DNA from: Escherichia phage ukendt
Length of the DNA stretch: 64,000 nt
Reading direction: 5' to 3' (one strand)
Sequence record: NC_052661.1
Shown: piece after piece, positions 8,644 to 63,669 of the stretch
How positions within the stretch are numbered: position 1 is the first letter of the stretch
How the letters are laid out: each line of letters begins with the position of its first letter
Notes under the pieces: model-generated
The model's database searches: none
What the model saw: only the letters and a program-made list of their open reading frames with translations
What the model was told of the DNA's origin: nothing
Made by a program: the position numbers and the translations under genes

Positions 8644-8646
8644 AAT

Positions 8647-8864: not shown

Positions 8865-8883
8865 CTATCTATTGAATAAAACT

Positions 8884-8911: not shown

Positions 8912-8932
8912 AAAGTTTAGGAGGATTTTATT

Positions 8933-9229: not shown

Positions 9230-9369
9230 TCCCTCTCCTCTCTTGGGGCTTTGCCCCTCCTCCTTGTTATTTTTAACACCCCTCTCCGAAAGGTTAGGGG
9301 CTTTTTTATTTTTAATGCTTGCAATTGTATATCATTTTGTGATAAGATCAGATATGAGGAGGATAAAAT

Positions 9370-9540: not shown

Positions 9541-9590
9541 CAACGCCCCTTCTCTTCCTAAAATAAAATTTTATGAGGAAGTAGAAGATA

Positions 9591-9983: not shown

Positions 9984-10218
9984 TGAGTGTAAGGCCGTAG
10001 CAATAGAAAAGGTTAAAGGTCCAGATTCGGACTTGATGGATAAAGTATCGACACCTGTGCCATACACTAAAAATCAAATTGCAAAAGGGGTTAGTAGATC
10101 TGAAGTTGTCAACAACCAAACTCAAAACAATGCTCTTTGGGAGCAAGATAGACGAAAGGTTTTAGGTTTACAAGCATATATTAAAACACTGCAAGAAAAA
10201 GGTATTATTGCTGAATAA
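9874..10218 (+). CDS. o-spanin (Rz1-like outer-membrane lipoprotein); start may be ATG 9892
   Basis: Signal sequence ending in lipobox-like LMMTG-C; begins inside the i-spanin gene in a different frame. Confidence 0.5.
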   Translation: MRIQRIMQKLILAVCLALPLMMTGCSSSTKVSPVLIDECKAVAIEKVKGPDSDLMDKVSTPVPYTKNQIAKGVSRSEVVNNQTQNNALWEQDRRKVLGLQAYIKTLQEKGIIAE

Positions 10219-10227
10219 GGAGGGAAT

Positions 10228-40255: not shown

Positions 40256-40270
40256 GTAGGAGAATAAATA

Positions 40271-40810
40271 ATGAATATTGTTTACGATGGTTTTGAACTA
40301 TATACTCCAGAACCTAATGAAGAGACGCTCTTTTTAATTGGTTTAGGGGTAGGATTTTTAAGAGATTCCTCTGGCAGGGATTGGTATGATTTATCGAAAG
40401 AGTTAGATGCTAAGTATCCTGATGCATATTTTGTTAGTTTAAATACTGATAACTTAGTCTTAGGTGTAGGGGAAGATGCAGTAGGATTATTCCCCCACAA
40501 TATGCGTGTTGTTGTTACAGATAACGTTCCAAAAGGTATGGCTGAATACCCAAGACAATGGAGATATAATGGAACAACTTTTGAAAAACATAACACTTGG
40601 ACGCAAGAAGATGTGGATACTACACTAGAGACAGAATTGACGTGGGCTGGAAACCAAATAGGTGCTTTGACAGATTTGCAAGAGTTACAAGGTTTGTCAG
40701 AGGAACAAGAAAAATGGTTAAAAGCTGTTAAGTTATATCGAGCATCTTTAGTTTTGTTAGATCTGAAAGACTTGAACAACATTCAATGGCCCGATAGACC
40801 TACTCAGTAA
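40271..40810 (+). CDS. tail fibre assembly chaperone
   Basis: 179 aa; C-terminal LYRASLVLLDLKDLNNIQWPDRP resembles the conserved end of fibre-assembly proteins; sits right after a fibre gene. Confidence 0.6.
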   Translation: MNIVYDGFELYTPEPNEETLFLIGLGVGFLRDSSGRDWYDLSKELDAKYPDAYFVSLNTDNLVLGVGEDAVGLFPHNMRVVVTDNVPKGMAEYPRQWRYNGTTFEKHNTWTQEDVDTTLETELTWAGNQIGALTDLQELQGLSEEQEKWLKAVKLYRASLVLLDLKDLNNIQWPDRPTQ

Positions 40811-40820
40811 GGGATACAGT

Positions 40821-41156
40821 ATGGAATTTCAAGAAGCATGGGGACTTGCCAAGGATGCAATCATCCCTTTAATCGGAGTCATCTGGTTCTTTTTCAAACA
40901 AAAAATGGATAAATTCGGCTCTGATCTTGAGGAAATGGAGGAGAAAAGTCGAGAGCTAGAGAAGAAGTTGGTCTTTGTTGAATCAACTTATGCAACTAAA
41001 GCCGAACTTACCCAGATGCTAAATCAAATTAACTCTACATTAATGGCAAATAATAACACTCTTGAGCAAAAAATTGAAAAGATTATGGACCTCAAGAATG
41101 CGACTATTCAAATGATGCTAGATGACATAGTTAAACGTACACAGAATAAGGGGTAA
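40821..41156 (+). CDS. small membrane-anchored coiled-coil protein
   Basis: 111 aa; N-terminal hydrophobic segment AIIPLIGVIWFFF then a charged coiled-coil. Confidence 0.3.
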   Translation: MEFQEAWGLAKDAIIPLIGVIWFFFKQKMDKFGSDLEEMEEKSRELEKKLVFVESTYATKAELTQMLNQINSTLMANNNTLEQKIEKIMDLKNATIQMMLDDIVKRTQNKG

Positions 41157-41159
41157 TTA

Positions 41160-46303: not shown

Positions 46304-46306
46304 TAG

Positions 46307-46331
46307 AAGCCCCGAAAGGGGCTTTCTTTTT
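46307..46331 (+). terminator. rho-independent terminator
   Basis: AAGCCCC-GAAA-GGGGCTT then TCTTTTTA. Confidence 0.7.
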
Positions 46332-46344
46332 ATGGAGGGTTTAA

Positions 46345-49017
46345 ATGTTTCCAATTCCAATATTTACTATTATGACCAGCACTGGTGTCGTTCCTCTGCC
46401 AGCGGGTATTGTTAAAAAAGTAATCACTTTAGATTACCCAGACAATGCTGGTAATTCTAACAGCAGTTTAGCAATTTTGCTTAACGATGGTAGATTGTTT
46501 ACTCAAGGTGCAAACCTTTTTGGTGAGATTGCAGATGGAACTCGTAGTGCACGATTCAATAATTTCCACTTAGCTTCTACTGTAGTAGCGGATGTGTTTA
46601 CCGCAGATCGTTGTTTTGTTATTAAAACTAATAGTGGGGGATGGCAATATTCAGGATTGACAGCAGGGTTGGTAGGATCTATAGCAGCAGGTGGTGCGGA
46701 TGCATGTGTAACTACTTGGACCAGCTTTCCATCTGTAATAACGGGGACTATCTCTTTAGCCAATCTTAAAGAGGTTAAGGGAGGATATAACAACACTCTC
46801 TGGTTAATGAATAGTGGTGTTCTTTATGGATCGGGTCAAAACACAGTAGGCAGTTTAGGTGCAAGTACTACTAACGAAGTTTCTACTCCTCGTCAAATAA
46901 CGAGTGCAGCAGTTGCTTTTGATGCAGGTTACAACCAATGCTCTTATGTCAACAATGTGGGAACCTTGCGTGTTTGTGGAGCCAGCAAAGGTTTAGCAGG
47001 TAATAATAACACAACAAAAGCTTTTGTAAATGCTACGATATCCACTACTGAAACAGTGTATGTCAAAGATTACATCAATACCGTTTCCCAGACAATAGTT
47101 GTAGGAGATACCTCCGGTGGAACTGGTACAACAAACTACCTTTATGTTAGATCTAATACAGAAACAACCTACACTAAGCTGGATACCTTTGCAGCAGGTT
47201 TCTCAACATGGAAGTTTCCACCGAGCCGTCACTCTTTTTTCGTTGGGATTAATAATTCCTTGTGGGCTATCGGTAAGAACTATACGGCAAACTTAGGTCT
47301 GGGGTATGATTCTGCGAGCGGAGATCCACTCCAAGTGGGAAAACCAGTTAAACCTGAAGGAGTGGGTTCCTGGGATATAAACAAGCTCACAAGCGTTCAT
47401 ACGCTGAATATGGATGTTACTAACCAATTAGGTTATCAAGGAACATTTTTCGTTTATAATGGAAGTATGTATTATTCCGGTATTTGGAAAGATGGGAAAG
47501 CGTCATATCTGTTCAATAGCGGTCTAAACTATAATAAATTCACACCAATAGCAAGCTCCGTGATTACGGGTGATGTGCTGGCAACTAGCTTAACTACAGA
47601 TTCTTTAGGAATTTGTATTGTAGGTGGAACTAAACAGTTGACACATTCTGTTAGCCCAGAAGGAGGTAAACTTTTCAATATTAAATACACTTCTTCTGCC
47701 CCTGCAAACATGACAATATCATCTACTGGCTTAATGACTTTCCAAGCAGAAGGTGGTTTTGATGCAGGTATGACAGCCTTAAACGCTGAAGGAACAACTC
47801 TATCAGATATCTCTGGAGGATATGCTTCAACATTGAGCGTTTACACCCCTAGCTTATCTGCGATGGATGTAGGAACAACACAAACAATGGTAGCAGAAAT
47901 AACGCCAACAGGAGCAGCAAGCTTACCTGGTATGGTTGTTGAGTATACAACTACAGATCCTAGTGTTGCTACAGTAGATCCTACAACTGGCGTAATAACT
48001 GGAGTTGGTGATGGTGGTTGTAGAATTGGTTGCACAGCTACGTATCAAGGTGTTGTTACCGCTTCTGATAGTTCTTATTTAACGGTGAACGCTGTTGCGG
48101 GAAAGGAGTTAGCTCCATCTCCGAGTAGTAGTTTAACGGTTCTAAACGGATATTTCAACCACTCGGCAGATGGGGCGATTACGTTCCCAACTTTATCGGG
48201 TACTGTTACACCAGCTAACTTTGTAGTTAAGGTGGATGACGTTGTAGTTCCTTCAAGTAAAGTAATATTTAGAAATAAAGCTTTCTCTACAGTGGATAGT
48301 TATCCAGCAGGAGAATATAGACTGGCTATTGAATTTGCAAGTGCTTCTGTAGTTAATAATGTTGAGGTATCTATGGAAGCAAATCCAGATCTTTTAGAAT
48401 TGTGGGGCGGCAACAGGATTGGTTATTCTACAAGCCCAGCCTCACAGTTCTTAAAAGGTTGTGCTAACTTAAGACGAATAACCTCTGATTGTTTTAGTAA
48501 CACATCTTACACCGGAACGTCTATAAGTGGTATTTTCTCTGGCTGCACAAGTTTGACAGCTATCCCTGAAGGATTATTCAGCGATACTTTATTTCCTTCG
48601 ATGACAACAATGTCAAGCACGTTTGAAGGTTGTACGTCTTTAACATCTATTCCTTCTGATTTATTTAAAAATTTATCAAAAGTTACAAGATACTCTTACA
48701 CCTTTAAAAATTGCACCTCTCTTGCAGAAGTTCCAGCCGGAATGTTTGACAATATTCCAACGAAAGTAACCTCTTTAACAGCTACGTTCCAAGGTTGTTT
48801 AGCACTTACAGATTTTAATAAAATCTTTAATGACAACCCAGGGTTAACGGTTTGTGGTCAACGTGGAGCATTGTCTTCTTTCTTTAGTGGATGCACAAAT
48901 CTTACAGGAACAGGAGTAACATTAACAAGCACATTAGGTGGAGCAGCTAATAGTTACCTATTCAGGTATTGCACAAAACTTTCTGATTATAACAACATTC
49001 CTTCGGGTTATAAATAA
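46345..49017 (+). CDS. multidomain adhesin-like tail protein (RCC1-like repeats, Ig-like segment, BspA-type leucine-rich repeats)
   Basis: 890 aa; N-terminal repeated G-x-N-x-x-G-x-L-G units; central TTTDPSVATVDPTTGVITGVGDGG segment; C-terminal repeats of F.GCTSLT.IP..LF. Confidence 0.5.
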   Translation: MFPIPIFTIMTSTGVVPLPAGIVKKVITLDYPDNAGNSNSSLAILLNDGRLFTQGANLFGEIADGTRSARFNNFHLASTVVADVFTADRCFVIKTNSGGWQYSGLTAGLVGSIAAGGADACVTTWTSFPSVITGTISLANLKEVKGGYNNTLWLMNSGVLYGSGQNTVGSLGASTTNEVSTPRQITSAAVAFDAGYNQCSYVNNVGTLRVCGASKGLAGNNNTTKAFVNATISTTETVYVKDYINTVSQTIVVGDTSGGTGTTNYLYVRSNTETTYTKLDTFAAGFSTWKFPPSRHSFFVGINNSLWAIGKNYTANLGLGYDSASGDPLQVGKPVKPEGVGSWDINKLTSVHTLNMDVTNQLGYQGTFFVYNGSMYYSGIWKDGKASYLFNSGLNYNKFTPIASSVITGDVLATSLTTDSLGICIVGGTKQLTHSVSPEGGKLFNIKYTSSAPANMTISSTGLMTFQAEGGFDAGMTALNAEGTTLSDISGGYASTLSVYTPSLSAMDVGTTQTMVAEITPTGAASLPGMVVEYTTTDPSVATVDPTTGVITGVGDGGCRIGCTATYQGVVTASDSSYLTVNAVAGKELAPSPSSSLTVLNGYFNHSADGAITFPTLSGTVTPANFVVKVDDVVVPSSKVIFRNKAFSTVDSYPAGEYRLAIEFASASVVNNVEVSMEANPDLLELWGGNRIGYSTSPASQFLKGCANLRRITSDCFSNTSYTGTSISGIFSGCTSLTAIPEGLFSDTLFPSMTTMSSTFEGCTSLTSIPSDLFKNLSKVTRYSYTFKNCTSLAEVPAGMFDNIPTKVTSLTATFQGCLALTDFNKIFNDNPGLTVCGQRGALSSFFSGCTNLTGTGVTLTSTLGGAANSYLFRYCTKLSDYNNIPSGYK

Positions 49018-51631: not shown

Positions 51632-54600
51632 CTAGTGACAGGACGCCCAGGAGTTACCCACATCATATCCGGCAGTAAGCTGAACATTAAGATTGTAAAA
51701 TTCTCCAGCCTTAGTAACAGCTAAAGCAGCAAGTTCACCTGCCCGACTATAGGCTGTAAACCATCCACCTTTGGGAGATTCATGAATGTTAGCCCAAATT
51801 TGCCCTGTCTCTTTTTCCTTATTATGCTTCCATTCTTCAACTTTAGCAAGGCATTCTTTATCAATTTTCTTTTGTTCTTCAGGATCGTCTACTTTCTTCC
51901 AACCTAATGATTCAGGTGAAAACCATTTAAATTCTACAAGGTTACGAGAAACTTCAAGCTGGGCTTCATCGTGATATGCAATCATTTGTTGCACGAAGTC
52001 TTTATTCTTCCAGTCATCTTTAAAGAAGTCAACACTTAGCCCTTCTTCTTCGATCATGTCGTCATAAATAACCATTGCACGTTTAGCACAGATAACCCCA
52101 CCACTTTGGAACAGAGAGTTAAGAATCGCGTGAGCAGAACGAGTAGGAACCTTACGACCGTCAATACCCAAAACATACTGTTTACCAGTCTTAACCCAGA
52201 AATCGTTTAAACGTTCTTTAAGACGCGCCAGTGGGAATGCAGCTTCCCAGAAAGCATCGAACACCAGTTGCCCTGTGTATTTATCGCTACCAATTGTTTT
52301 AGCAACCTTGTCTGCTTGAGCGCCGTACGTGCAGTTACCTGTCAACGTGATAAAACCATTCTGACGCATAACAAAAGATTCATTCTTGGTTGAGATACAG
52401 AATACATCTGTTACTCGTGAAAAAGCTTTTGTCAACCTCTGTCCTGAAATAGTTTGTCCGTTATTGATTGCCAACGTTAACATGCCATCTTTTTGAACAG
52501 AACCATACGCAATATTACCTGTCATATTGATAGCCAAAGAAACAGCGTCGCTAATCTTACCTTTCTTTTGACGGATAACAAGACTGCCGTTTGGACGCTT
52601 ATGACCATCTGCCATCCAGAATGCCTCTAAGAATGCTTCCAACACAGCTTGACCTTGATTAGCAATTAATGTAGACCAGTCCACTTCGTGCTTATTTTGA
52701 CCCACTTCAACGCCACATTTAGTCAAAAATTCCCTAAACTGACTCTTATTAGGACGTAATGAATGCATCGTTCCAGATACATACTCGTCAAATGTGAAGA
52801 TATCTCCCACAGCCTCACGTGCTTCTTCTAAGAATTTTTTCTCATCTTGATCTACCGTGACTGTAATACCCATTACTTTATTTCTGGCTTTGCCAGACCA
52901 CTTATAGTAGCCATCCGAAAGAAGCCAGCCTAAGAAACGACCTTCTTCCACTGTTAGAGTAGACACCACACCAGATCGCCCTGCTGCAATTATGTTTGAC
53001 TCCGAGTTTAAATCCTCTGTAGATCTACGCTCCACTTGCATATACTTAACATTGTTACCATCTGATCGCATAGTTTTTCTCTGTGCGTTAATCCACATAT
53101 GATCGTTAGTAACTTCTACTTTGAACCACTTGTTACCGAGAGAGACAACTTCTGCATCGTTATAGTCCCACAGCTTAAGAATAGGGGTATATTCGTAAAG
53201 AGCGGTGTGAGTATTATAAGATAAAACTTCATCCCCTACAAAAAGATCTTTACGTTTCTTCCAACCCGTTCTTGTTAACACTTCCGTATTATCTACAGGT
53301 ACACAACCGTATTTAACGCTCTTAGCAGGACCACGTTCAAACTTACGTCCAATAATATCAGTAATATGTTTTGCCATCATAGTATGCACATCGTTTGGTT
53401 TTTCTAACAGAAGTGCATTACAGTAAGCATGATCAGGATTATCATATCTCCACGTATAATGCGACTCAATCTTCGCCTCTAATGAATCAAAGTCATAACC
53501 AATCTGGAAGTATTTAGGAACCTCTACACCAAACAGGTTACGCATTTGCCATCCAAACAAAGAGGTAACACGAGGAATATTGGCTACAGACCTATGCTTC
53601 ATACGAGAGGTTGCTGCATCGCATGTAGCCGCTGGCGTAGGTATACGTCCATCTGCACGAACTGCTGCCAAGAAACCTTTGTTGTATTCTTGATCTTCTT
53701 CGTCTTCTTCCCAATCAGCACCACCGCCTAAAATAGAGTTCCTACGATGCTTATACGTTAAGTATTCTACAATCTGCGTAGCATAAGGAAACTTCTCACC
53801 CAAAGCTTGCAGGTTAGGACAAATTTCTTTTTCCTGACCTTTGGTAAAACATGGGTTAGTCAATACTTTAAGACCGCGACCTTTACCTTTTGCTATACGC
53901 TCTTGAATCTTCCTTTCCAAGGTTTCGGGTGTGCACTCCAGATGATCACAACGATCCTGACAAAAATTAGAAGATAGAGTTTGCTCAACGTAAGCTCGAA
54001 TACCTTTCTGAAGTTCTTCCTCACTCTTTTTAATTTTGGTGCCAGATTTAAGCGTCAAGTCTTTATCTTTGTATTCAGACGGTACCCAACCTAATCCTAC
54101 AAGCCAGTTTTTAATATGGGTTGTATCGTTCAATGTTGCAGGGATGTTAGGATCACATAGAGGCTCATCTGCTGCAACTGGCAGTTTCCACTCTTTCCCC
54201 AACATAACTAACCACCAATCTCCATCCCTCTCTTCCAAATGACCATCATGTTTCTTAGCAAAATTGATCATATGGTTAGTTGGCTCTAAGTTCTTTTTAA
54301 TTTGCAACTTAGGTGGAATAAAAGCCTTAAGATAACCTTTTGTTGCTGGTTTAGGTGGCAAAATAGGCTCAACGAGTAAACGAAGACGCTCCATTTCTGC
54401 ATCCAAAAAAGCAAGGTTCTCTTCTGCTTGCTTCATGTTAAAAGCAAACCCACGGTGTTCCTGGCGTGTAATAATGTCTGCTACACGTTGTTCAAGTTCA
54501 AATGGACCTTCCCATTTATCATAATCACCCCACTCTTCCATAAGGTAATTATATACGCTCGTATTGGCTTTGTTGTCATAGATACAGTAATAAAGCATAT

Positions 54601-55201
54601 CAGCAGCAAAAGTCTTAAATCGATCTTCTTCTGGAATCTCTTTACGGAAATCTATTTTTACATCACCTCCTGCCTTTCGAGAAAGTGCTGCCAAGCTATG
54701 TCCTGATTTGCCCTCAATCTTTCGATCTGGGTTTAACACTTTACTCAAAATCAAGGAGTCAATAAGTTTTACCTTATTTTTGCCCCACGTATTATATTTA
54801 ACACTGTAATCTAAGCCATAAAACAGTTTTGTAGCCAACCAGTCATAGTTGATACCGTTGTGAGCCACAGCCATTTCAACCAGATATTCAGGCTTATCTT
54901 TAAAATAACCTTCATGATTAATAAAGTCTGGGAAATCTTTTAGTTGAAAATGTGTGTAATCTTGCGCCACATACTCTTTAAGAACATATGTGTATTTGCC
55001 ATCTGACTCTTCATAAGGACGCCCATCAAAGATGTATTTAGGGCCATCGTGGAAAGCTACTATTTCTCCTGTTTCATGGTTCTCTAAGACAATACAGTGC
55101 ATTTGAAATGTGTCTTTGAGACGATAAGGACTAGCTAAATAATCGATAGTGTCATTATTCAACAAGCCGTTTGCTTCAATATCCCATGTAAACTTACTCA
55201 C
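51632..55201 (-). CDS. family A DNA polymerase with 3'-5' exonuclease domain, interrupted by an intein
   Basis: N-terminal DIEANGL exonuclease motif; motif B reconstituted as RGPAKSVKYG-CTYGAQADKV after removing residues 633-956; motif C YHDE; GTG start overlaps the stop of the upstream methyltransferase. Confidence 0.85.
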   Translation of the reverse strand: MSKFTWDIEANGLLNNDTIDYLASPYRLKDTFQMHCIVLENHETGEIVAFHDGPKYIFDGRPYEESDGKYTYVLKEYVAQDYTHFQLKDFPDFINHEGYFKDKPEYLVEMAVAHNGINYDWLATKLFYGLDYSVKYNTWGKNKVKLIDSLILSKVLNPDRKIEGKSGHSLAALSRKAGGDVKIDFRKEIPEEDRFKTFAADMLYYCIYDNKANTSVYNYLMEEWGDYDKWEGPFELEQRVADIITRQEHRGFAFNMKQAEENLAFLDAEMERLRLLVEPILPPKPATKGYLKAFIPPKLQIKKNLEPTNHMINFAKKHDGHLEERDGDWWLVMLGKEWKLPVAADEPLCDPNIPATLNDTTHIKNWLVGLGWVPSEYKDKDLTLKSGTKIKKSEEELQKGIRAYVEQTLSSNFCQDRCDHLECTPETLERKIQERIAKGKGRGLKVLTNPCFTKGQEKEICPNLQALGEKFPYATQIVEYLTYKHRRNSILGGGADWEEDEEDQEYNKGFLAAVRADGRIPTPAATCDAATSRMKHRSVANIPRVTSLFGWQMRNLFGVEVPKYFQIGYDFDSLEAKIESHYTWRYDNPDHAYCNALLLEKPNDVHTMMAKHITDIIGRKFERGPAKSVKYGCVPVDNTEVLTRTGWKKRKDLFVGDEVLSYNTHTALYEYTPILKLWDYNDAEVVSLGNKWFKVEVTNDHMWINAQRKTMRSDGNNVKYMQVERRSTEDLNSESNIIAAGRSGVVSTLTVEEGRFLGWLLSDGYYKWSGKARNKVMGITVTVDQDEKKFLEEAREAVGDIFTFDEYVSGTMHSLRPNKSQFREFLTKCGVEVGQNKHEVDWSTLIANQGQAVLEAFLEAFWMADGHKRPNGSLVIRQKKGKISDAVSLAINMTGNIAYGSVQKDGMLTLAINNGQTISGQRLTKAFSRVTDVFCISTKNESFVMRQNGFITLTGNCTYGAQADKVAKTIGSDKYTGQLVFDAFWEAAFPLARLKERLNDFWVKTGKQYVLGIDGRKVPTRSAHAILNSLFQSGGVICAKRAMVIYDDMIEEEGLSVDFFKDDWKNKDFVQQMIAYHDEAQLEVSRNLVEFKWFSPESLGWKKVDDPEEQKKIDKECLAKVEEWKHNKEKETGQIWANIHESPKGGWFTAYSRAGELAALAVTKAGEFYNLNVQLTAGYDVGNSWASCH
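52334..53305 (-). mobile_element. intein (324 aa) with LAGLIDADG homing-endonuclease domain, inserted in polymerase motif B
   Basis: Starts CVPVDNTEVLTRTGW, T-x-x-H block (VTNDH), two LAGLIDADG-like motifs (LGWLLSDGY, LEAFWMADGH), ends FITLTGN followed by Cys. Confidence 0.8.
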
Positions 55202-55995
55202 TATTCCTCCTTTCTAATGTTCTCCAGAACCCACTGAAGTTCTTTTAAACTTAAACTTCTTACTCCCGCAGTTTTACTAGCTTCCGCTTTAAGTAACGGG
55301 TAAGCTTCAATGATACGCGTTTTAAGATCAGAAGTCAAGGCTTTTAAAAAATAGGTAGATGCTTCAGATAAAGAATCTTCTTCTGTTAGCACTTTACCTG
55401 CGCTTGCTCCGGCTCTCCTAACAGCTATGTCGTAGTCTTTGCTGTTACCTAATACGAACAGTCGATTCTCTCCTAAAACAACGGGAGAACGCTTCTGGCT
55501 GCGTTTAATCCATATTTGGAATACACAAGGAACATCCCAAGGTTCTCCATGAAGAATAAAAGATCCTTTGGGACACTCTTCTTCGTGAAGAAGATGCATA
55601 TAAGGATTTAGTTTGTGTGCAAAAAAGATTTTTTGAAATGTGCGAGGTAAGATAAAACAAATACCACCTTCGTTATCCAGCATTTCAGCACAATGGTTAA
55701 AGAACTTAATGGCAAGACTAGCGTTTTTTCCGAATGGAGGATTACCAACAAAAGCCGTTACACTACCAACAGACTCAACAGATTGAGCTAAAAAATCTGC
55801 CTCAATACAATCTTCAAACTTAGGGTCAATATCAAAAGAAGTTATGTTTTTAAAACAAGAAGAGAAAGCTCCTTCTCCCGCAGATGGTTCTACGTAGTTA
55901 GCTTCCTCTCCAAAAATTTCTTTGATCTTATCACATAAGAACCCCGCATAAGCGGGGTTAGTGTAATATTGATCAAGTGTGTTCAACTTGCTCAA
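55201..55995 (-). CDS. amino-methyltransferase (probable DNA N6-adenine or N4-cytosine methyltransferase)
   Basis: AdoMet-binding EPSAGEGAF precedes catalytic VGNPPFG (NPPF), the gamma-class motif order; 264 aa. Confidence 0.7.
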   Translation of the reverse strand: MSKLNTLDQYYTNPAYAGFLCDKIKEIFGEEANYVEPSAGEGAFSSCFKNITSFDIDPKFEDCIEADFLAQSVESVGSVTAFVGNPPFGKNASLAIKFFNHCAEMLDNEGGICFILPRTFQKIFFAHKLNPYMHLLHEEECPKGSFILHGEPWDVPCVFQIWIKRSQKRSPVVLGENRLFVLGNSKDYDIAVRRAGASAGKVLTEEDSLSEASTYFLKALTSDLKTRIIEAYPLLKAEASKTAGVRSLSLKELQWVLENIRKEE

Positions 55996-56004: not shown

Positions 56005-56436
56005 TTAGTTGTTAGCGAACTCAATAGTGAGGTCAACTTTACCATCATCAGAAATAACCATGTTTTTGGTATTTTTAAAGATGATATCTACTTTACCTTC
56101 ACTTACACGACAGAATGCAACACCATCTGCAACTTTATCGATATAATATTTGTAAGAAAGAATACCCACTTTACTACGACCAGCACCTTTTGTGAAAGAA
56201 GGGCTTACATCGAAACGAAAACCTTTAGAAGAAACAACACGGTAAGAACGTCCAGTTGGAAGATGTTCAATAACAGAGACATTGTTCTCAACAACTTTTA
56301 CAGCAAACTCTTCAGGATGATCCTCAACAATCATGTGTGGGATGGCAAATGCCAACGCTTGTTTGTGTTTAATAACACCAGCACCCAGAGCACCAGCAGC
56401 TTTAACTTTTGCATTCAGATCGATTGTCATACGCAT
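56005..56436 (-). CDS. hypothetical protein with its own promoter
   Basis: 143-aa ORF; GGAG RBS; promoter TTGACA/TATACT immediately upstream. Confidence 0.4.
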   Translation of the reverse strand: MRMTIDLNAKVKAAGALGAGVIKHKQALAFAIPHMIVEDHPEEFAVKVVENNVSVIEHLPTGRSYRVVSSKGFRFDVSPSFTKGAGRSKVGILSYKYYIDKVADGVAFCRVSEGKVDIIFKNTKNMVISDDGKVDLTIEFANN

Positions 56437-56469: not shown

Positions 56470-56499
56470 AGTATAAGTCCCTTCCGCAAAGTTGTCAAC
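56470..56499 (-). promoter_or_regulatory. sigma70-like promoter on minus strand (TTGACA, 18 nt, TATACT)
   Basis: Reverse complement of 56494..56499 is TTGACA and of 56470..56475 is TATACT; lies between a terminator hairpin and the 56436 start. Confidence 0.55.
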
Positions 56500-56514: not shown

Positions 56515-56530
56515 AAGGGCCGAAGCCCTT
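56515..56530 (-). terminator. terminator-like hairpin at the end of the primase-helicase gene
   Basis: AAGGGC-TTCG-GCCCTT on the minus strand overlapping the stop codon, followed by TTATTAAAAA. Confidence 0.45.
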
Positions 56531-58307
56531 AGTAGTTGCTATCCGTAGGTAAGTTAGCAGGGTTGTTAAAATACTGCTCTTTGTCGTGAAGAGTTGCAGT
56601 TCTAATGTCATAGTAAAACTGCCCTGCTGGACCAGTCTCCGAGAACTCACGGTTTTTTAGGATAAAGCAATGAGTTGTATTACGTTCTACAGGATCTTCA
56701 GCAGCCTTATCTCGTTCCAAAGCCAAGGTAATACCAGCACCTTTAGCCAAGAAACTACTACCCATTGCATCGTCCTCTGTTAAGTGCTCATTGCCACCAT
56801 TAGCTGACTTCTTAACGTGTGAGATGACGATAATAGTTATAGCATACTCTTTCATGATTCGCTTCAACCATGTTGCTAACTCTTCCTGGGCTTGAACATC
56901 CATACCAGAAAGCAAATCAGAATAAGGGTCGATAACAAGAATTGTTACTCCAAAATAGATGATCATCTCCAAAACTTTTTCTTTGATAGACTCCACATCT
57001 GCTCCACGATCATCACACACGTAAAAACGTGGTGATCCATCTTCTCTTTCGTAAAAATCTAGGATTTTTTCTTTATTCTCTTCCAAGATTTGAAATTTCT
57101 CTTCCGGTGTTTTCCTGTGTAGAGGAATGTGTAGGAAAGAGGATAACAGGTTACGAGAATACTTTTTATAAGTCGCTTCCAAGGACAGAATACCTAGGGT
57201 ATGTTCTGGGTGTGCAACAATAATATGTTTGGTGATCTCGTTCACCATCAAAGTTTTACCGATACTGGTCTTTGCCAGGATGACTGTAATCTCTTCCTCT
57301 ACTAAACCACCACCCAACATGTTTGCAGCAACACGCATAAAAGGAGGCAAGGTAATCATCTTGGATTCCAAGCATTCCAATGCAGCTTCATACAAGACAT
57401 TAGAAGCATAAACACCTGCTGGGGTGTATAGACGAGCACTCCAAAAAGCTTTTACGAAATCTTTTGCACGGCCTTCTTCCAGATACTGATTGGCATCCTT
57501 AAGATCCATCTGCATACGGTAGACTTTGTTACGAGGCAGCACCTTAACAATATTTTCAAATGCCTCGTTACCTGCTTTGTCGTTATCCATGCAAACAATA
57601 ATCTTCTTAAATTTTTCAAAGAAAGGATATTGTGCCTGAACTTGTTTATACATACTGGTTTCACCAGTTGTGCCACTTACTACGGCTGGAAGCTCATATT
57701 TACTGTCCAAGTTTTCAGATAGCATTTGATAAGCTGCCAGAGCATCGTGTTCACCACCTGTAATTACAACAGTATGAGAACGATCTGCAAAACGAATTTG
57801 TCCAAAAAGATCTACATCTTTACCTACTTGACCAATAGGTTTACTGAAATCTTTAGGATGAATACGACGCTTAAAACCAACCAATTCTTTACCGATGGTA
57901 GTTGGATATAAACAACTTTCTACTACCATCTGATCCCCTTCCTGACGGTATTCATAACGAACACCATAGAAAGATGAAACTTTTTCTTTAATGCCTCGAT
58001 AACCACGTGGGTTGGTTGATGTTTCTTGAACAATTTTACGATGAATCTGTTTATTAAATTCCGAACCCACAATCTCCTCCTCTTCTTCTAAAACTTCACC
58101 ATTTTCTCGTAACCATTCTACGCTAGGAATAGTGTATTCACACGCAAAGCACTTAGCACCTTTATGCTCTCCATTAGAATCTAATCCATAAACCATCAGG
58201 TTATTACGAGAGCGATCCTTGCCATTTTTCATGCAGCGCGGACAACCTGTATGTCCTTCCTTGCTAAGATCAACATCAAATCCATATTTAGTTATAATGT
58301 GCGACAC
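56529..58307 (-). CDS. bifunctional primase-helicase
   Basis: N-terminal Cys4 zinc ribbon (CPRC...CFAC), TOPRIM-like VVITGGEHDALAAYQ, helicase Walker A AKTSIGKT and Walker B ILVIDPYSD. Confidence 0.8.
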   Translation of the reverse strand: MSHIITKYGFDVDLSKEGHTGCPRCMKNGKDRSRNNLMVYGLDSNGEHKGAKCFACEYTIPSVEWLRENGEVLEEEEEIVGSEFNKQIHRKIVQETSTNPRGYRGIKEKVSSFYGVRYEYRQEGDQMVVESCLYPTTIGKELVGFKRRIHPKDFSKPIGQVGKDVDLFGQIRFADRSHTVVITGGEHDALAAYQMLSENLDSKYELPAVVSGTTGETSMYKQVQAQYPFFEKFKKIIVCMDNDKAGNEAFENIVKVLPRNKVYRMQMDLKDANQYLEEGRAKDFVKAFWSARLYTPAGVYASNVLYEAALECLESKMITLPPFMRVAANMLGGGLVEEEITVILAKTSIGKTLMVNEITKHIIVAHPEHTLGILSLEATYKKYSRNLLSSFLHIPLHRKTPEEKFQILEENKEKILDFYEREDGSPRFYVCDDRGADVESIKEKVLEMIIYFGVTILVIDPYSDLLSGMDVQAQEELATWLKRIMKEYAITIIVISHVKKSANGGNEHLTEDDAMGSSFLAKGAGITLALERDKAAEDPVERNTTHCFILKNREFSETGPAGQFYYDIRTATLHDKEQYFNNPANLPTDSNY

Positions 58308-58319
58308 TTTGTTCTCCTG

Positions 58320-58598
58320 TTAAAATGGTTCGTTAGTCTCCATCATATATTCTGCTTCTAGTTCTTCCATGTGCTTTCTAAATTGGAAAGCAATTTCTGC
58401 TACAGTTACATTTAAATCTTTTTCAAAAACTTCTGTAGATCCTTCATAAAAACGAATACCGTCAATTAAAAGCCCTCCGTGGTAATCCCAATCGCTTTCA
58501 CGAGAAAGTGGATTAGGTTCTTCATAATAGTAATCCACCTCCACGACCAAGGCTTTCCCGTTACGAGTGGTGTATTCAAAATCAAAAGTGTTAATCAT
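58320..58598 (-). CDS. hypothetical small protein with acidic-aromatic C-terminus
   Basis: 92 aa ending EAEYMMETNEPF. Confidence 0.35.
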   Translation of the reverse strand: MINTFDFEYTTRNGKALVVEVDYYYEEPNPLSRESDWDYHGGLLIDGIRFYEGSTEVFEKDLNVTVAEIAFQFRKHMEELEAEYMMETNEPF

Positions 58599-59542
58599 TA
58601 TAGCTCCTCAAATAAAAGTCTACGACGCTCATTCAACACATCAATGTGATAATGAGTCCTGACATACTTAGCTAATGCTAATCCTTTCTCCATGCAAACA
58701 TCGGGAGCACTTAATAAGTATTCCGTAATATCTTTCCACTCGGAAGGTGTTTCAGCAAAGAATAACAAATCTTTAAACTCTTGTGTATGATAATTCTCAC
58801 GAGGAGAGCAGATTAAAGGTAAACCCTTAGCACCTGCCTCAAGAATTTTAAGATTGCTTTTTGCATTATTAAACACGTTATCGATCAATGGTGCAAGACT
58901 GATTTGATGACCATCGTAAGATTCCATGTAGTTGGCATATGGTCTTACACCTTCATAAACACAAGTTGGTGCTACATTTTCCCTGATTAAAGACCATTCA
59001 CGACTACTTAAAACTTCAGAATCCCTACGAAAACCACATATTGTAAGATCTTTACCAAAATCGGGCAAGATAGCCAAATCTTGTTTATGTGTTTCACTTC
59101 CAGCCCAGACTAATGGAGTTTTGGAGTAGCGATCACGGGTCAACACAAATTGACCTTCATCGTAAGGAAGTCCATTAGGGATTATGTGCACATTATCATT
59201 GTATTGTGAAAGTTCAACTTGCAAGGCAGGTGTCGTAGTTGTAACAAGATCACTGTGCTCTAAAAACCATTTTAAATGTTCACGAATACCTGATTCAAAA
59301 ATACCTTCTAACATGTGTCCTTTTGGAATAACTAAAGAGTCATCCAAATCCATAACCATTTTAAAGCCCAGGTTTTTAAGGGCTAAAAAGCCCTCTTTAC
59401 CTTTTGTTGGCACTCCGTTAAAAACGAAAACGTTGTGTTTAGGTTGTGAAGAGAACTGCCTTGAGTAAGGCAGCACTACCCTATGGAAATCGCAGACACT
59501 ATAATTGATTCCGTTACGATTGTCAAGAATTATTTGTCCCAT
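58598..59542 (-). CDS. glycosyltransferase (GT-B-like), paralogue 1
   Basis: 314 aa; TPLVWAGSETH and KSNLKILEAGAKGLPLICS resemble the donor-binding C-terminal half of GT-B enzymes; paralogous to next gene. Confidence 0.55.
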   Translation of the reverse strand: MGQIILDNRNGINYSVCDFHRVVLPYSRQFSSQPKHNVFVFNGVPTKGKEGFLALKNLGFKMVMDLDDSLVIPKGHMLEGIFESGIREHLKWFLEHSDLVTTTTPALQVELSQYNDNVHIIPNGLPYDEGQFVLTRDRYSKTPLVWAGSETHKQDLAILPDFGKDLTICGFRRDSEVLSSREWSLIRENVAPTCVYEGVRPYANYMESYDGHQISLAPLIDNVFNNAKSNLKILEAGAKGLPLICSPRENYHTQEFKDLLFFAETPSEWKDITEYLLSAPDVCMEKGLALAKYVRTHYHIDVLNERRRLLFEEL

Positions 59543-59549
59543 ACTTCAC

Positions 59550-60497
59550 CTACAAACTTTCAATAACCTGGCGTCGCAATTCGTTTGCATCTGCCAGATT
59601 ATAATGTGTTCGAACATGTTCCGCTAAGAACAAGCCGCGATCTTCCCGATAGTTCGGATTGCGAAGAAGCTTAACAATTTCGTAATGCCATTCAGCTTTA
59701 TTCTCTGCGTAAGCAACAGCGCGAGCATCTACAGGGTTAAAATAAGGTAATACCTTAGAACAAACAATCGGAATACCTTTTGCCCCAGCTTCAAGGATTT
59801 TGAGATTACTTTTACAATTATTAAAATCATTGTCTACCAAAGGAGCTATAGCAATAGCATGACTTTCGTAAACACTCATGTAATTATCTAAATCTTTTAC
59901 AGCAGCTTTATATTTGGCGTTTGGTAAATTTCTACGGATCTTAATCCACTCTTGCCCTGTGATACTCTGCGATGCTTCATATCCTGCAATAGTAAGAAGT
60001 TCATCATCGAAAGTATTAGAGACTAGTCGTAAATCGGGTTCGTGACTAGCACCGCCAGCCCATACAACAGGGGTACCGGATGAACGATCATTTGACAAAG
60101 TGAATTGTCCGCTATCAAAAGGAAGTGCATTTCGGATCACAACAACATTCCTATTTAAGTGACGGATTTTATATGCCAAATATTCCGTAGTCACAATGAC
60201 CACATCGGCAAGCTTAACCATAGCTACAATAGCATGAGTGTTTGACTCATATAAACTTGCTAAATAATGTTCTGGATTAAGTTGGTAGAAATCATCTAAA
60301 TCTACAACAATCTTAACACCTTGACGTTTCAGGGACAGAACATATTCTGCCCCTTTAGAATGAATACGGTTAAACACGACAACATCTTTCTTAGGCTGAA
60401 AATTATTGTTGTTAAATGGTATAACAATACGATGATAATCACAACCACTGTGAGGTTTTGCATCAATTTTCAGTTTAGTCCATTTTTTATTTGACAT
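59550..60497 (-). CDS. glycosyltransferase (GT-B-like), paralogue 2 (start refined from track start 60536)
   Basis: TPVVWAGGASH and KSNLKILEAGAKGIPIVCS; internal ATG 60497 has an AGGAGG RBS and aligns with the paralogue N-terminus. Confidence 0.55.
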   Translation of the reverse strand: MSNKKWTKLKIDAKPHSGCDYHRIVIPFNNNNFQPKKDVVVFNRIHSKGAEYVLSLKRQGVKIVVDLDDFYQLNPEHYLASLYESNTHAIVAMVKLADVVIVTTEYLAYKIRHLNRNVVVIRNALPFDSGQFTLSNDRSSGTPVVWAGGASHEPDLRLVSNTFDDELLTIAGYEASQSITGQEWIKIRRNLPNAKYKAAVKDLDNYMSVYESHAIAIAPLVDNDFNNCKSNLKILEAGAKGIPIVCSKVLPYFNPVDARAVAYAENKAEWHYEIVKLLRNPNYREDRGLFLAEHVRTHYNLADANELRRQVIESL

Positions 60498-61170
60498 GTG
60501 CCAGTGCCTCCTCATAAGAAATTCGGATTTTCCCATTTTTAATATCTTCTAAAGACGCTTTATATTCTTCCCAGTTAATGCCAATAGCAGCTTCTTTCTC
60601 TTCTTTTGTCAGATTAGCAAAAGGCATAGGATTGTTTCCAAAAACATCGTCTGGGTGGATATAAGCCATGATACGAAGTGGACAAGGTATTGCCTGAATG
60701 CCCTGATTCAAACCAGCAGCTTTCAAACGGTGTACCCATTCAGCATCTTCAAAACCATAGCCGTGAGTGTAAGGGCGGAAATAACCCATCTTCTCAATAA
60801 CGGCACGAGAATACATTGCAAATTGACACATTGCAAGTTCCCAGAGAATAACTTCTCCTTTACTCCCAACAACTTTATCTTTGAAATACTCCGGCATACC
60901 AAAGAAATCCCATCCTCCAGAGACAGCTTGATCTACAAAATATGTTTCCCATCCCTCCATGATTGGGTAGCAATCGTCGTCAAAAATAAACCAATAATCA
61001 TAACCTTCTTCATAAAACTGGTGCATAAGTTCATTCCTGGCGTAAGCTACACCTTTACGATCTGGATCGTTGAATACTCGAAAATCTGCATGTGGATCTG
61101 TTACAAGGTAGTCTTTAAGTGGACGGACACCTACAGTGATAACACCCACTCCGATTTTAATATTTTCCAT
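60487..61170 (-). CDS. glycosyltransferase (GT-A-like, DxD motif)
   Basis: 227 aa; YDYWFIFDDDCYP acidic DxD-type motif. Confidence 0.5.
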   Translation of the reverse strand: MENIKIGVGVITVGVRPLKDYLVTDPHADFRVFNDPDRKGVAYARNELMHQFYEEGYDYWFIFDDDCYPIMEGWETYFVDQAVSGGWDFFGMPEYFKDKVVGSKGEVILWELAMCQFAMYSRAVIEKMGYFRPYTHGYGFEDAEWVHRLKAAGLNQGIQAIPCPLRIMAYIHPDDVFGNNPMPFANLTKEEKEAAIGINWEEYKASLEDIKNGKIRISYEEALAHVK

Positions 61171-61178
61171 TTTCTCTC

Positions 61179-61742
61179 CTAAATAGTTTTACTGTGATCG
61201 TGACAGTGTAATAAATGATGTATAGACCGTTGAGGATTTGTTTGACCTAATCTGTAAATGTGAAACAGATACATTCCCCGCATCAATCCTAACCTCTTTC
61301 CTTTTTCATGTAAAGTGCGAGAGAAAATTAAGTCGAATTGGATAGATTTTTCTTCGAAAGGAATTTCATTCCACAATGATTTTCTAAAAAGCAAAAAGAA
61401 ACCTGCCAGAGGTGTTCCGAAAGGAACTTCTTCAACACTCACTTTATGATATTCTCTTGCAATCTTAGCATATTTTATATGGTTTAGAATGTCTGGATCA
61501 TCGTTAATTTGGTTAGAGAAAAGCTGATAACCACTACCTAACCTGTTACAAGTTGCACCTATTACATCAAAAGGCGGGTTTGACATAACAAGCTCTTCAA
61601 GCATAGATGGTTGATCAGGCAGGAGGAACATTGTATCGGTATCTCTTAAACACACCCAACTATCATCTGGAAGAACGGCAATAGCTTCATTGATAGCCTT
61701 GCCGATATTTCCTGTCAGATAGGGAGTAATATAATAAATCAT
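61179..61742 (-). CDS. putative glycosyltransferase (small GT-A-like)
   Basis: 187 aa; VCLRDTDTMF acidic motif; first gene of the four-gene block. Confidence 0.4.
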   Translation of the reverse strand: MIYYITPYLTGNIGKAINEAIAVLPDDSWVCLRDTDTMFLLPDQPSMLEELVMSNPPFDVIGATCNRLGSGYQLFSNQINDDPDILNHIKYAKIAREYHKVSVEEVPFGTPLAGFFLLFRKSLWNEIPFEEKSIQFDLIFSRTLHEKGKRLGLMRGMYLFHIYRLGQTNPQRSIHHLLHCHDHSKTI

Positions 61743-61758
61743 TCTCCCCTCCGTTATA

Positions 61759-61950
61759 TTAACTGTCAGCTACAATCCCACGTTTAATCATTTCTTGTTG
61801 GATTTGGATGACACGATCTCGTGCTTCCATATATTCTTTAAAAGATTCTTGGAGATGGTCACGAGCTACATCCCGTAGTTTAATCAGTTTGTCGTTTGTC
61901 ACTTCTTGAAGAGAGATTTCGCCAGTTTCATTGGTCCCAAGCGTTTTCAT
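61759..61950 (-). CDS. hypothetical small protein
   Basis: 63-aa helical, charged ORF. Confidence 0.3.
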   Translation of the reverse strand: MKTLGTNETGEISLQEVTNDKLIKLRDVARDHLQESFKEYMEARDRVIQIQQEMIKRGIVADS

Positions 61951-62206
61951 TTACAACCTCCTTAATAGCTACTGCACAGTTCTTACAAATACATTGACCT
62001 TTGTTCTTAGAAATTTCAATGTAAGGTTCATTTTCGTTTTCTCCGCGTCGTGAATCGTATATTACAGTATTGAAGCAGACAACGCAAATGTTTTTAATAA
62101 CGACATATTTTTGCACTTTTTGCTTAGTGCGAAAATTGACTTCAATGACTTCTCCCATCAGTGAATCTCCCCTAAAATGTTGTTTTGAGACATTACTGCG
62201 GAGCAT
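61928..62206 (-). CDS. zinc-ribbon-like small protein
   Basis: 92 aa with CVVC...CICKNC pattern. Confidence 0.35.
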   Translation of the reverse strand: MLRSNVSKQHFRGDSLMGEVIEVNFRTKQKVQKYVVIKNICVVCFNTVIYDSRRGENENEPYIEISKNKGQCICKNCAVAIKEVVNENAWDQ

Positions 62207-62505
62207 TCTACAGCATCATGAGTCCTTGCAAAACGCTCCCACAGCACAGCATCTACTTTAAGAACCATACAAGGATAAATACTGTCGTTGATCATATCAA
62301 TGCTATATTTATCTACATCCTTTTCATCTTCCATAAACAAAGTAGCGTATGCTTCCAAATGTTTATGGGTGTAGTATACGTCCTCTTCGGTAAGACCGAC
62401 AACCAGGTAACTTGCTACAACAACAGTATTATCTTCTTGCATTTTAACTCCCCTTTGGTAGATAGAAACCATGCACTTTATCTCGATAAACAAGACGCAT
62501 ATCAC
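62158..62505 (-). CDS. hypothetical protein (may start at the internal Met after the endolysin stop)
   Basis: 115-aa track ORF overlaps the endolysin 3' end by ~60 nt. Confidence 0.3.
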   Translation of the reverse strand: MICVLFIEIKCMVSIYQRGVKMQEDNTVVVASYLVVGLTEEDVYYTHKHLEAYATLFMEDEKDVDKYSIDMINDSIYPCMVLKVDAVLWERFARTHDAVECSAVMSQNNILGEIH

Positions 62506-62965
62506 GCTCCCAGTGTGTCCTTATATTCCGTTTCTTGAAGTATAGAGCACCTTTAGTAACATCTAAAACAGACCGCAATTCAGGAAAATGTTTCTCTAAA
62601 TAAAGTAAACGTTCCGCTATTGCTTTTGCTTCCTGCCACTTATCTTTCTCTGTTACGTTAAAAGTTTTCGCATATGAGAATTGCCCTTTCTGGAACAAGA
62701 CTCCTCTGACTGTGTTAGGGAAGTATGTATCATTTCTTCTGTTGATTACTACATTCCCAACGGCATTCATTCCTTTTTTACCCAGACCTCGACCTTCTGC
62801 GTAAATTGCACAAGCTAATAGAATTTTATCATTATATTGCTTTGTACATTTGTGAACTACTTTAGCGGTTTTTACGTTTGCAGCTTCGGCTTTCGCCACA
62901 ACAGGTGTAAATGTAAAAGCAGTTAAGGATAGTAACGCAACTGTTACAAAGTTTTTTATCAGCAA
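62444..62965 (-). CDS. endolysin, SleB/CwlJ-type cell-wall hydrolase with N-terminal signal sequence
   Basis: N-terminal hydrophobic leader ending AKA-EA; mature region contains LLACAIYAEGRG...VGNVVINR...VLFQKGQFSY. Confidence 0.65.
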   Translation of the reverse strand: MLIKNFVTVALLSLTAFTFTPVVAKAEAANVKTAKVVHKCTKQYNDKILLACAIYAEGRGLGKKGMNAVGNVVINRRNDTYFPNTVRGVLFQKGQFSYAKTFNVTEKDKWQEAKAIAERLLYLEKHFPELRSVLDVTKGALYFKKRNIRTHWERDMRLVYRDKVHGFYLPKGS

Positions 62966-63066: not shown

Positions 63067-63669
63067 TTATGGACATTCATACCATTCTTTTTTACCACCG
63101 AAGGCCATCACCACATCACAAATATCCAGACCAGCTTTACCTACACCATATGCTTTCAGCTTCCATTCCCCATCTTCACGAACCAAGGAAGCCACGTGGC
63201 AGATTGTGTTGCCAGCTACTTCAGGAGCCAGGAAGTCAAAATCCAGAATTTCCACATTGCGCTCGGAGTCGAAGATTTTAAGCATACCTTCAGAAGCATG
63301 ACCAAAACGTTTCAGACCTGTATCATCATCAATGGTCAGAACAAAGGCAATCTCTTGTGCATCAGGAGAGATTTTAGCCAGAGTAATATCAATCTGCTCC
63401 ATGCTGCCAGTTCCATCACGAACATCATCACCAGCAAAGGTAGAACGTTCAGGATCAAACTTGTTAGCATAGCAAACCAGATGACGTGCAGACAGCATTT
63501 CAGGATTGCCAGCGGCATTGTGACGACAAACCAGTGCACTTACATCCAGATCCAGTTTAGAATCAGATTTCCAAGAGAATTCCAGGCGCAGTTCTTTCAG
63601 AGCCGGAGCAACTTTCTTCAGGGAAATTTTTTCGCTAGAGCCTTTTTTCAGGGAAATTTTATCAGTCAT
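63067..63669 (-). CDS. TerD-family protein
   Basis: 200 aa; ISLKKGSSEKISLKK N-terminal repeat, LDLDVSA, FVLTIDDD and GEWKLKAYGVGKAGL align with hallmark segments of bacterial TerD. Confidence 0.7.
   Translation of the reverse strand: MTDKISLKKGSSEKISLKKVAPALKELRLEFSWKSDSKLDLDVSALVCRHNAAGNPEMLSARHLVCYANKFDPERSTFAGDDVRDGTGSMEQIDITLAKISPDAQEIAFVLTIDDDTGLKRFGHASEGMLKIFDSERNVEILDFDFLAPEVAGNTICHVASLVREDGEWKLKAYGVGKAGLDICDVVMAFGGKKEWYECP

Follow-up and report, generated by a model that had tools for sequence, protein, structure and literature searches.

Mycobacteriophage loci such as that of Corndog (gp35-38) and those of the Che8-type capsid and tail glycans combine several soluble phage glycosyltransferases (GTs), often together with an O-methyltransferase. 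In Corndog, an O-methyltransferase and three GTs lie between the genes for portal and protease and have been proposed to modify the capsid (PMC4351075). Capsid glycans have also been reported for mycobacteriophages related to Corndog (Freeman et al. 2023, as cited in PMC11256854). Here we describe a block of four consecutive minus-strand genes (A, B, C, and D) at positions 58598-61742 of a 64,000-nucleotide stretch of Escherichia phage ukendt (NC_052661.1), which is referred to as a whole as the window. The four genes encode predicted GTs, two of GT-B type (A and B) and two of GT-A fold (C and D). Like the mycobacteriophage loci, the block joins several soluble GTs, and its homologous cassettes in other phages are also found between portal and protease/capsid genes. 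It differs from Corndog in belonging to phages of Gram-negative hosts, in lying outside the structural operon, in being accompanied by a dedicated dTDP-L-rhamnose pathway, and in being known from its genes alone. As the layout is shared without sequence homology, the resemblance to Corndog is one of organization and presumed logic, not of family membership. By analogy, the Corndog-like portal-protease layout and the capsid modification proposed for it point to a virion-protein target. Our leading explanation, to which we give slightly less than an even chance, is that the block builds, step by step, a short glycan containing rhamnose, and that its acceptor is a protein, most probably one of the virion.

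Several other described systems can be compared with the block. Phage GTs placed among DNA-metabolism genes are found in T-even-type DNA glycosylation (alpha- and beta-GT of T4, the beta-glucosyl-HMC alpha-glucosyltransferase of T2/T6, arabinosyl-5hoC in RB69/DLP3), in which more than one GT can work in series and some phages make their own nucleotide sugar (PMC13326640). However, these systems need a ThyA-family enzyme for the hydroxylated base and give restriction-resistant DNA, neither of which holds for the carriers of the block, and homology is limited to a 40-residue local match of C to phrog_842. The TAGT clusters resemble the block in that C, a predicted GT-A enzyme, has a DxD region weakly similar to that of TAGT, whereas C is below the Pfam threshold and neither a TET dioxygenase nor a partner C5-methyltransferase adjoins the block. 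The capsid and fibril glycosylation machineries of giant viruses (PBCV-1, Megavirinae) combine virus-coded nucleotide-sugar synthesis, including that of rhamnose, with soluble GT-A and GT-B enzymes, and glycosylate virion proteins in the cytoplasm; they belong, however, to eukaryotic viruses, and their likeness to C is at the fold level only. Seroconverting Gtr and other O-antigen-modifying GTs are likewise phage-coded and alter a glycan, but they are encoded by temperate phages, reside in the membrane, and act on O-antigen in the periplasm, whereas A-D have no transmembrane (TM) segments and the phage is virulent. A preliminary description of this stretch had offered three functions for the block, namely T4-like sugar modification of DNA, glycosylation of virion proteins, and remodeling of the host envelope, and had judged it not assignable to a described pathway. 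We agree with the latter judgment.

A candidate glycan on virion proteins

In the proposed scheme, the cassette would act as a set of soluble cytoplasmic enzymes composed of D (minimal GT-A), C (GT-A with DxD), and the duplicated GT4-like GT-B enzymes B and A. Their donors would be the dTDP-L-rhamnose made by the phage itself and host nucleotide sugars. One GT would prime the acceptor residue, and the others would extend the product to a short rhamnose-containing oligosaccharide. The acceptor would most probably be a capsid or tail protein of the phage, resulting in a glycan coat like that of some mycobacteriophages; the capsid gene of the window phage is at positions 16101-17102. Within this scheme we infer rhamnose as the donor for one GT, a protein as the acceptor, and a place in the virion for that acceptor.

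A virion protein is favored as the target because of the gene context in unrelated phages, where homologous genes are found in head modules. The IMG/VR database was scanned with a profile of D, giving 72 loci, and hidden Markov models of the three families were used to sort the arrangements (numbers with the letter L below are our handles for loci). The same profile found one near-identical contig of a metagenome-assembled genome among genome contigs, in a search whose derived patterns were too strict. The full D-C-GTB-GTB block is present in Stephanstirmvirinae-like contigs, and D-GTB-GTB without C in a few contigs. A shorter D-C-GTB form is found in the distant large myophages L021 and L022, in the siphovirus contig L023, and in a prophage of Serratia sp. 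M24T3. In L021, a NAD-dependent sugar epimerase/dehydratase gene sits between D and C. In L023, the cassette begins 26 nt past a Gp13-like major capsid protein (MCP) gene (Pfam E 1e-106), the overall order being TerL-portal-MuF...MCP-D-C-GTB...tail tube-tape measure. The Serratia cassette is located between the lysis cassette and the HNH/TerS/TerL/capsid/portal genes, and is homologous to the block at hhalign E values of 1.9e-63 (D) and 7.6e-50 (C).

The D family is composed of 11 clusters at 55% identity. In the largest one, D is preceded by a TOD1/MUCI70 GT-like domain, the two forming the C-terminal and N-terminal halves, respectively, of a protein with about 400 residues. More than 30 IMG/VR contigs of this cluster have the order TerL, portal, SAM methyltransferase, a 215-aa protein (u215), the GT with the D domain, prohead protease, MCP, and connector. 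The same portal-to-protease/capsid layout is seen in a cultured phage, Cellulophaga phage phi18:1 (gp40-gp41). In other clusters, D is found beside the portal, TerL, protease-MCP, or tape-measure gene, usually together with two to five additional genes of GT2 type and with enzymes for sugar tailoring (FkbM or Methyltransf_24 methyltransferases, DegT aminotransferase, hexapeptide acyltransferase, epimerase/dehydratase). Taken by locus, GT genes lie within the virion structural operon in L023, L005, L036, L045, L065, phi18:1, and the more than 30 contigs mentioned above. Homologous cassettes or D genes are thus located within or beside head-morphogenesis genes in several unrelated phage lineages, and this association across lineages is new evidence. 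It gives the glycosylation of virion proteins the most support among the three functions offered by the preliminary description, with the reservation that the block of the window phage itself lies outside the structural module.

The donor side of the scheme is provided by a pathway outside the window. The window is a segment of a Phapecoctavirus genome (Stephanstirmvirinae), and over positions 58000-62000 it shares 99.7-99.8% identity with Escherichia phage ESCO5 (NC_047776.2), with 62 further records at an identity of at least 95%. The genes rmlA, B, C, and D are found at 30.5-33.8 kb of ESCO5, and their products score above the NCBIfam equivalog cut-offs (bits/cut-off: RmlA 459.5/360.65, RmlB 428/365.1, RmlC 225.3/155.75, RmlD 238.9/224.05), so that ESCO5 encodes a complete dTDP-L-rhamnose pathway (RmlABCD). 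In tblastn searches, gene D and RmlC were each found at an identity of at least 60% in 130 phage records, the organisms represented being the same for both, namely Phapecoctavirus, phi92-like Justusliebigvirus, and a few Klebsiella, Citrobacter, and Serratia relatives. This co-occurrence suggests that at least one of the four GTs uses dTDP-L-rhamnose.

Several points weigh against a virion glycan. In the window phage, the block stands apart from the structural module, in one direction with the replication genes on one side and the endolysin gene on the other, which means that the argument from gene context comes from other lineages. Slots beside terminase and lysis genes are frequent insertion sites for unrelated accessory genes. 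Moreover, comparison of Corndog gp36-38 with the A-D families gave hhalign probabilities of at most 1%, and hmmsearch found nothing significant between them. The GT-B fold of A and B is based on weak profile matches. One D cluster adjoins DNA methyltransferases, of C5 type in L072 and N6/N4 type in L076. In addition, our literature search found no report of glycosylated virions in Stephanstirmvirinae or any other coliphage.

At a broader level, and with a lower probability than for the block itself, the D-C-GT-B cassette and the D family may represent an unrecognized virion-glycosylation system of Gram-negative phages, including Stephanstirmvirinae, the Serratia prophage, Cellulophaga siphophages, and many uncultured phages, with a rhamnose-containing coat in Phapecoctavirus and Justusliebigvirus. 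Virion glycosylation would then extend from mycobacteriophages to Gram-negative phages, as the first case outside phages of actinobacteria, and the coat would be made with a phage-made sugar donor in coliphages that are at present part of therapy cocktails. Phapecoctavirus and phi92-like phages have among the broadest host ranges of coliphages and are candidates for therapy and biocontrol, and a glycan coat on their particles would matter for how therapeutic phages are recognized by antibodies, how they are cleared, and how stable they are. What the conserved rhamnose pathway and the four GTs are for has been noted as a question in the literature since 2020; the first guess was DNA modification, which has since been met by the restriction sensitivity of these phages. 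Even with DNA or the host envelope as its target, the cassette would define uncharacterized GT families with a dedicated donor pathway. The cultured Cellulophaga phage phi18:1 and the easily grown coliphages make the question directly testable.

Three side observations concern the methyltransferases found near D homologues. The methyltransferase beside the head-module GT of phi18:1 (L080, 7868-9540) is annotated as 'DNA methyltransferase' on the basis of PF13578 (Methyltransf_24), and its equivalent in L037 (8230-10552) belongs to Methyltransf_23/11/25. As these are domains of small-molecule or O-methyltransferase type, the DNA label of phi18:1 is doubtful. In L072, positions 5351-11421 directly upstream of the portal/capsid genes form a complete-looking rare-sugar island containing a DegT aminotransferase fragment, Methyltransf_24, a hexapeptide acyltransferase, a GT2, the D-family GT, and the C5 cytosine DNA methyltransferase. 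A TET gene was sought beside this D homologue, and sugar-tailoring enzymes were found instead; the neighborhoods of both L072 and L076 yielded no dioxygenase.

The four glycosyltransferases

The gene content claimed by the preliminary description was recovered, including a pair of GT-B-like paralogues, a GT-A-like enzyme with a DxD motif, and a second small GT-A-like protein. A and B are 41% identical over 303 residues (E 3e-77), which identifies them as paralogues, and both contain VWAG and KSNLKILEAGAKG-x-P-x-x-CS. They also retain every invariant residue of a 28-sequence family alignment, including DLDD and K228/K232 in KSNLK-x-LE. The longest open reading frame (ORF) of gene B (59550-60536) would encode 328 residues, while an alternative ATG at 60497 gives 315 residues. 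The N-termini of homologues and the RefSeq annotation make the ATG at 60497 the more likely start.

Assignment to families by profile search, which the preliminary description had looked to, succeeded in part. A reaches 25.2 bits against Pfam Glyco_trans_1_2 (gathering score 25), the only match of either paralogue to reach its gathering score, whereas the matches of B to Glyco_trans_1_2 and Glyco_trans_1_4 all fall below it. Most homologues of A and B carry PF13524, and the profile matches place a Rossmann domain with the group-1 GT signature at the C-terminus. For a possible second, N-terminal Rossmann domain, which would complete the two-lobed GT-B fold, the search gave only a weak Glyco_transf_4 match in A (E 1.3e-3, 19.2 bits). 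Against known structures, the A/B family profile matched only the C-terminal domains of GT4-type GT-B enzymes (TreT, PglA, BshA), with E values of 1e-3 to 4e-2. A single-sequence search of PDB sequences with A returned ankyrin designs only. Given the marginal Pfam scores and the C-terminal-only matches, the GT-B call is profile-based, and A and B are assigned with modest confidence as GT4-like GT-B glycosyltransferases.

C and D each have a single Rossmann-like alpha/beta/alpha nucleotide-sugar-binding domain, as in the GT-A fold, and are predicted GT-A-fold glycosyltransferases with DxD, glycosyl transfer itself being likewise a prediction. C contains FIFDDDCYP, of which FIFDDD is invariant in the family; the residues D64-D65-D66 are invariant in 15 C homologues. 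In D, the corresponding residues D34 and D36 (RDxDT) are invariant in 24 homologues; the two-domain GTs of other phages have this same domain as their C-terminal half. C matches phrog_2456 over its full length (E 1.7e-79) and phrog_842 at residues 31-70 only (E 5.5e-6). Its score against the TAGT family PF20691 is 19.2 bits, below the gathering score of 27.5, and covers residues 33-68 only (the DxD region). Among viral proteins, the closest predicted structural neighbors of C include Megavirus GTs, whereas TAGT proteins rank 39th and 43rd. Single-sequence and profile searches of PDB sequences with C and D gave chance matches only.

All four genes are named 'glycosyltransferase' by the PHROGs families 7162, 2456, and 14179 and by RefSeq records, and their identification as GTs is thus not novel. 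None of them is covered by an NCBIfam model, no Gtr family was matched in Pfam or NCBIfam, and a literature search found no experimental work on A-D. The maximum Kyte-Doolittle hydropathy over 19 residues is 0.76-1.65; the resulting absence of TM segments indicates that A-D are soluble.

Other possible acceptors

The host envelope is an unlikely target of the block. A-D would then act at the cytoplasmic face on lipid A-core, enterobacterial common antigen (ECA), or other undecaprenyl-linked intermediates. Such a role would agree with the resemblance of GT4-like GT-B enzymes to envelope glycan GTs (PglA, and RfaG in the annotation of one record). ECA and the core of lipopolysaccharide (LPS) are receptors of these phages (PMC8594841), and added rhamnose might mask these LPS-core/ECA receptors, limiting superinfection or the loss of progeny on debris. 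The block is separated from the endolysin gene by three small ORFs in both the window phage and L004, and the Serratia cassette lies just past the lysis cassette. However, the endolysins adjacent to cassettes belong to the unrelated families Hydrolase_2 and GH19, so the adjacency to lysis genes may be positional. In addition, A-D have neither membrane segments nor Gtr-type components, the contexts of the D family are mostly head modules and not lysis or conversion loci, and a lytic cycle would be short for LPS turnover. En-bloc transfer of the cassette with its neighboring endolysin was considered separately and rejected on the same difference in endolysin family.

A target other than virion or envelope also has a low probability in our estimate. 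It could be a host protein, glycosylated to take over the cell or to counter its defences in a way resembling EarP, NleB, or Lgt-type effectors. Further candidates are non-structural phage proteins and small molecules, for example the nucleoside-like product proposed for the neighboring cluster of Ter and phosphoribosyltransferase (PRTase) genes. The co-direction of the block with early/middle-type genes and the PHROGs category of its families ('moron, auxiliary metabolic gene and host takeover') are compatible with such a target, as is the TerD gene adjoining the block in the window, with TelA, vWA-TerF, TerC, PRTase, and HAD genes present in ESCO5 and L004. Ter genes are, however, missing from the other cassette contexts. 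Four GTs with a dedicated sugar pathway suggest the building of a glycan over the addition of a single regulatory sugar, and the association with head modules in many lineages would be left unexplained.

DNA as the acceptor is improbable. A-D would here glycosylate a modified base in phage DNA, perhaps in a sparse or sequence-specific manner; rhamnosylation of hydroxymethylated nucleotides was proposed by Olsen et al. 2020 as the role of the rhamnose pathway of such phages (PMC7552041). The location of the block near the primase-helicase gene, the N6-adenine methyltransferase-like gene, and the DNA polymerase gene would fit this idea. So would the sub-threshold local matches of C to TAGT and to phrog_842, the beta-glucosyl-HMC alpha-glucosyltransferase, the DNA methyltransferases next to D homologues in L072 and L076, and the presence in ESCO5 of an unusual 332-aa ThyX-like protein, a NT5C-like nucleotidase, and a MazG-like pyrophosphatase. 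Known glycosylated pyrimidines originate from a ThyA-family hydroxymethylase, a 5-hydroxy-dCMP synthase, or TET acting on 5mC (PMC13326640). The window contains no hydroxymethylase among its genes. The preliminary description had stated that no base-modifying enzyme is visible in the window, which the N6-adenine DNA methyltransferase-like gene contradicts. That description had also looked to a dUMP/dCMP hydroxymethylase elsewhere in the genome. In the near-identical ESCO5, neither a ThyA-family hydroxymethylase nor a 5hoC synthase is present, and the sole thymidylate-synthase-like gene, gp097, encodes a divergent ThyX and not ThyA (Pfam Thy1 35 bits; TIGR02170 31.6 bits, below the cut-off).

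The third entry point was not found either. The surroundings of the cassettes examined and the annotation of the ESCO5 record revealed no TET enzyme, and neither a TET/JBP dioxygenase nor a C5-cytosine methyltransferase was found among the neighbors of the block, which are the primase-helicase, small ORFs, the endolysin, TerD, and the N6-adenine methyltransferase-like gene. Moreover, A-D match none of the DNA-GT families of Pfam and NCBIfam, C falls short of the TAGT gathering score with only its DxD region aligned, and the low rank of TAGT proteins among its predicted structural neighbors is in line with this. Restriction data on relatives of the window phage point in the same direction. In a study of 42 ESCO isolates, only three (ESCO10, 47, and 58) were resistant to HincII (PMC10269720), and the block carriers ESCO25, ESCO37, ESCO8, ESCO9, and ESCO32 (Phapecoctavirus/Justusliebigvirus) are not among them. 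The phi92-like BASEL phages, which have both the block and the Rml genes, were described as 'exceptionally susceptible' to restriction-modification (RM) systems 'despite a putative dTDP glycosylation machinery' (PMC8594841). Of the three functions first offered, the one with which the preliminary description had led, T4-like sugar modification of DNA, is thus disfavored as the least supported.

As a separate observation, ESCO5 gp097, annotated as 'thymidylate synthase', is a 332-aa divergent ThyX of which only residues 22-175 match the ThyX profile. It adjoins the gene of the NT5C-like 5'-nucleotidase, and the MazG-like pyrophosphohydrolase gene is located 5 kb away (ESCO5 39755-41371 and 46163-46888, L002). 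This neighborhood may have an unusual nucleotide-pool function.

Genomic surroundings of the block

The ORFs of the block and its surroundings are listed below. The flanking genes named by the preliminary description, primase-helicase and endolysin, are both present.

Table 1 Features of the window in and around the glycosyltransferase block
Feature	Position	Strand	Remarks
Gene A, GT-B-like glycosyltransferase, paralogue 1 (predicted)	58598-59542	-	314 aa; ESCO5 gp214; phrog_7162 E 2.9e-145
Gene B, GT-B-like glycosyltransferase, paralogue 2 (predicted)	59550-60497	-	315 aa; ESCO5 gp213; phrog_7162 E 6.8e-149
Gene C, GT-A-fold glycosyltransferase, FIFDDD (DxD) (predicted)	60487-61170	-	227 aa; ESCO5 gp212
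Gene D, minimal GT-A-fold glycosyltransferase, D34-x-D36 (predicted)	61179-61742	-	187 aa; ESCO5 gp211
Acidic 92-aa ORF	58320-58598	-	start overlaps stop of A; phrog_4240 E 6.4e-33
63-aa ORF	61759-61950	-	directly upstream of D; homologues in the same place in L021 and L022
Endolysin	62444-62965		SleB-type, Hydrolase_2 family
Primase-helicase	56529-58307		
N6-adenine DNA methyltransferase-like gene	55201-55995	-	between DNA polymerase and primase-helicase; NPPF motif; phrog_5172 E 1e-109, phrog_799 E 1e-10, weak Pfam Eco57I match
TerD-domain protein	63067-63669	-	Pfam E 3e-28; just beyond the endolysin
Family-A DNA polymerase ORF	51632-55201	-	1189 aa
143-aa ORF	56005-56436		
Near-consensus sigma-70-like promoter	56470-56498	-	TTGACA-17-TATACT, 11/12

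The block is part of a co-directional array, which runs from the endolysin gene through three small ORFs, D, C, B, A, and the 92-aa ORF to the primase-helicase gene, with the N6-adenine methyltransferase-like gene and the DNA polymerase gene beyond. It had been described as embedded in the replication module; it does stand beside replication genes, but its position is at their border with the lysis and Ter genes and not strictly within the module. Within the block, genes are spaced by 7-16 nt or overlap, and Shine-Dalgarno-like sequences are present ahead of A, C, and D. A scan of 55.9-64 kb for sigma-70 promoters and terminators gave 30 hits versus 23.3 +/- 4.6 in shuffled sequences, which is not above expectation and gives no sign of the block as a separate transcription unit. 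The T4 late-promoter motif TATAAATA was found 8 times versus 4.9 expected, which is no enrichment, and none of its occurrences is near the block. The sigma-70-like promoter in Table 1 falls in a 92-nt gap that follows the primase-helicase gene and precedes the 143-aa ORF.

The two small ORFs flanking the block are syntenic companions of it in related large myophages. Homologues of the 92-aa ORF come after the last GT gene in L004, L021, and L022. Those of the 63-aa ORF, for which a Pfam search gave no match, were found at E values of 4e-8 to 3e-10. A small ORF after the last GT gene was considered as a universal fifth member of the cassette and rejected, as it is kept only in the related large myophages and is absent from the Serratia prophage and L023.

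Beyond the endolysin gene, the TerD-domain gene opens a phage-borne cluster of tellurite-resistance type. In ESCO5, this cluster is located at 112-122 kb (L001, 25063-34947) and contains genes for TelA-like, vWA-TerF-like (in L004), and TerC proteins, a phosphoribosyltransferase, a HAD phosphatase, and a hydrolase; the phage carrying it is a virulent coliphage.

The DNA polymerase ORF is longer in the window than in ESCO5 (1110 aa) and in the distant L004, L021, and L022 (about 740-760 aa). Its middle part starts with a Cys after ...SVKYG, ends at ...TLTGN|C, and contains two LAGLIDADG-like motifs (LLSDGYY and WMADGH); Pfam matched only a fragment of DNA_pol_A in this ORF. The insert looks like a candidate intein with a homing endonuclease, whose length varies between near-identical phages.

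Finally, several GenBank records named for other hosts contain block DNA or protein 76-100% identical to that of Escherichia coli Phapecoctavirus/Justusliebigvirus. These records are MG065650 (Campylobacter phage B15), MG065645/MG065689, OP562383 (Acinetobacter phage ABPW7), and OR584014 (Pseudomonas phage PsgM04F). Such identity in records bearing Campylobacter, Acinetobacter, and Pseudomonas names suggests host mislabeling or contaminating coliphages.

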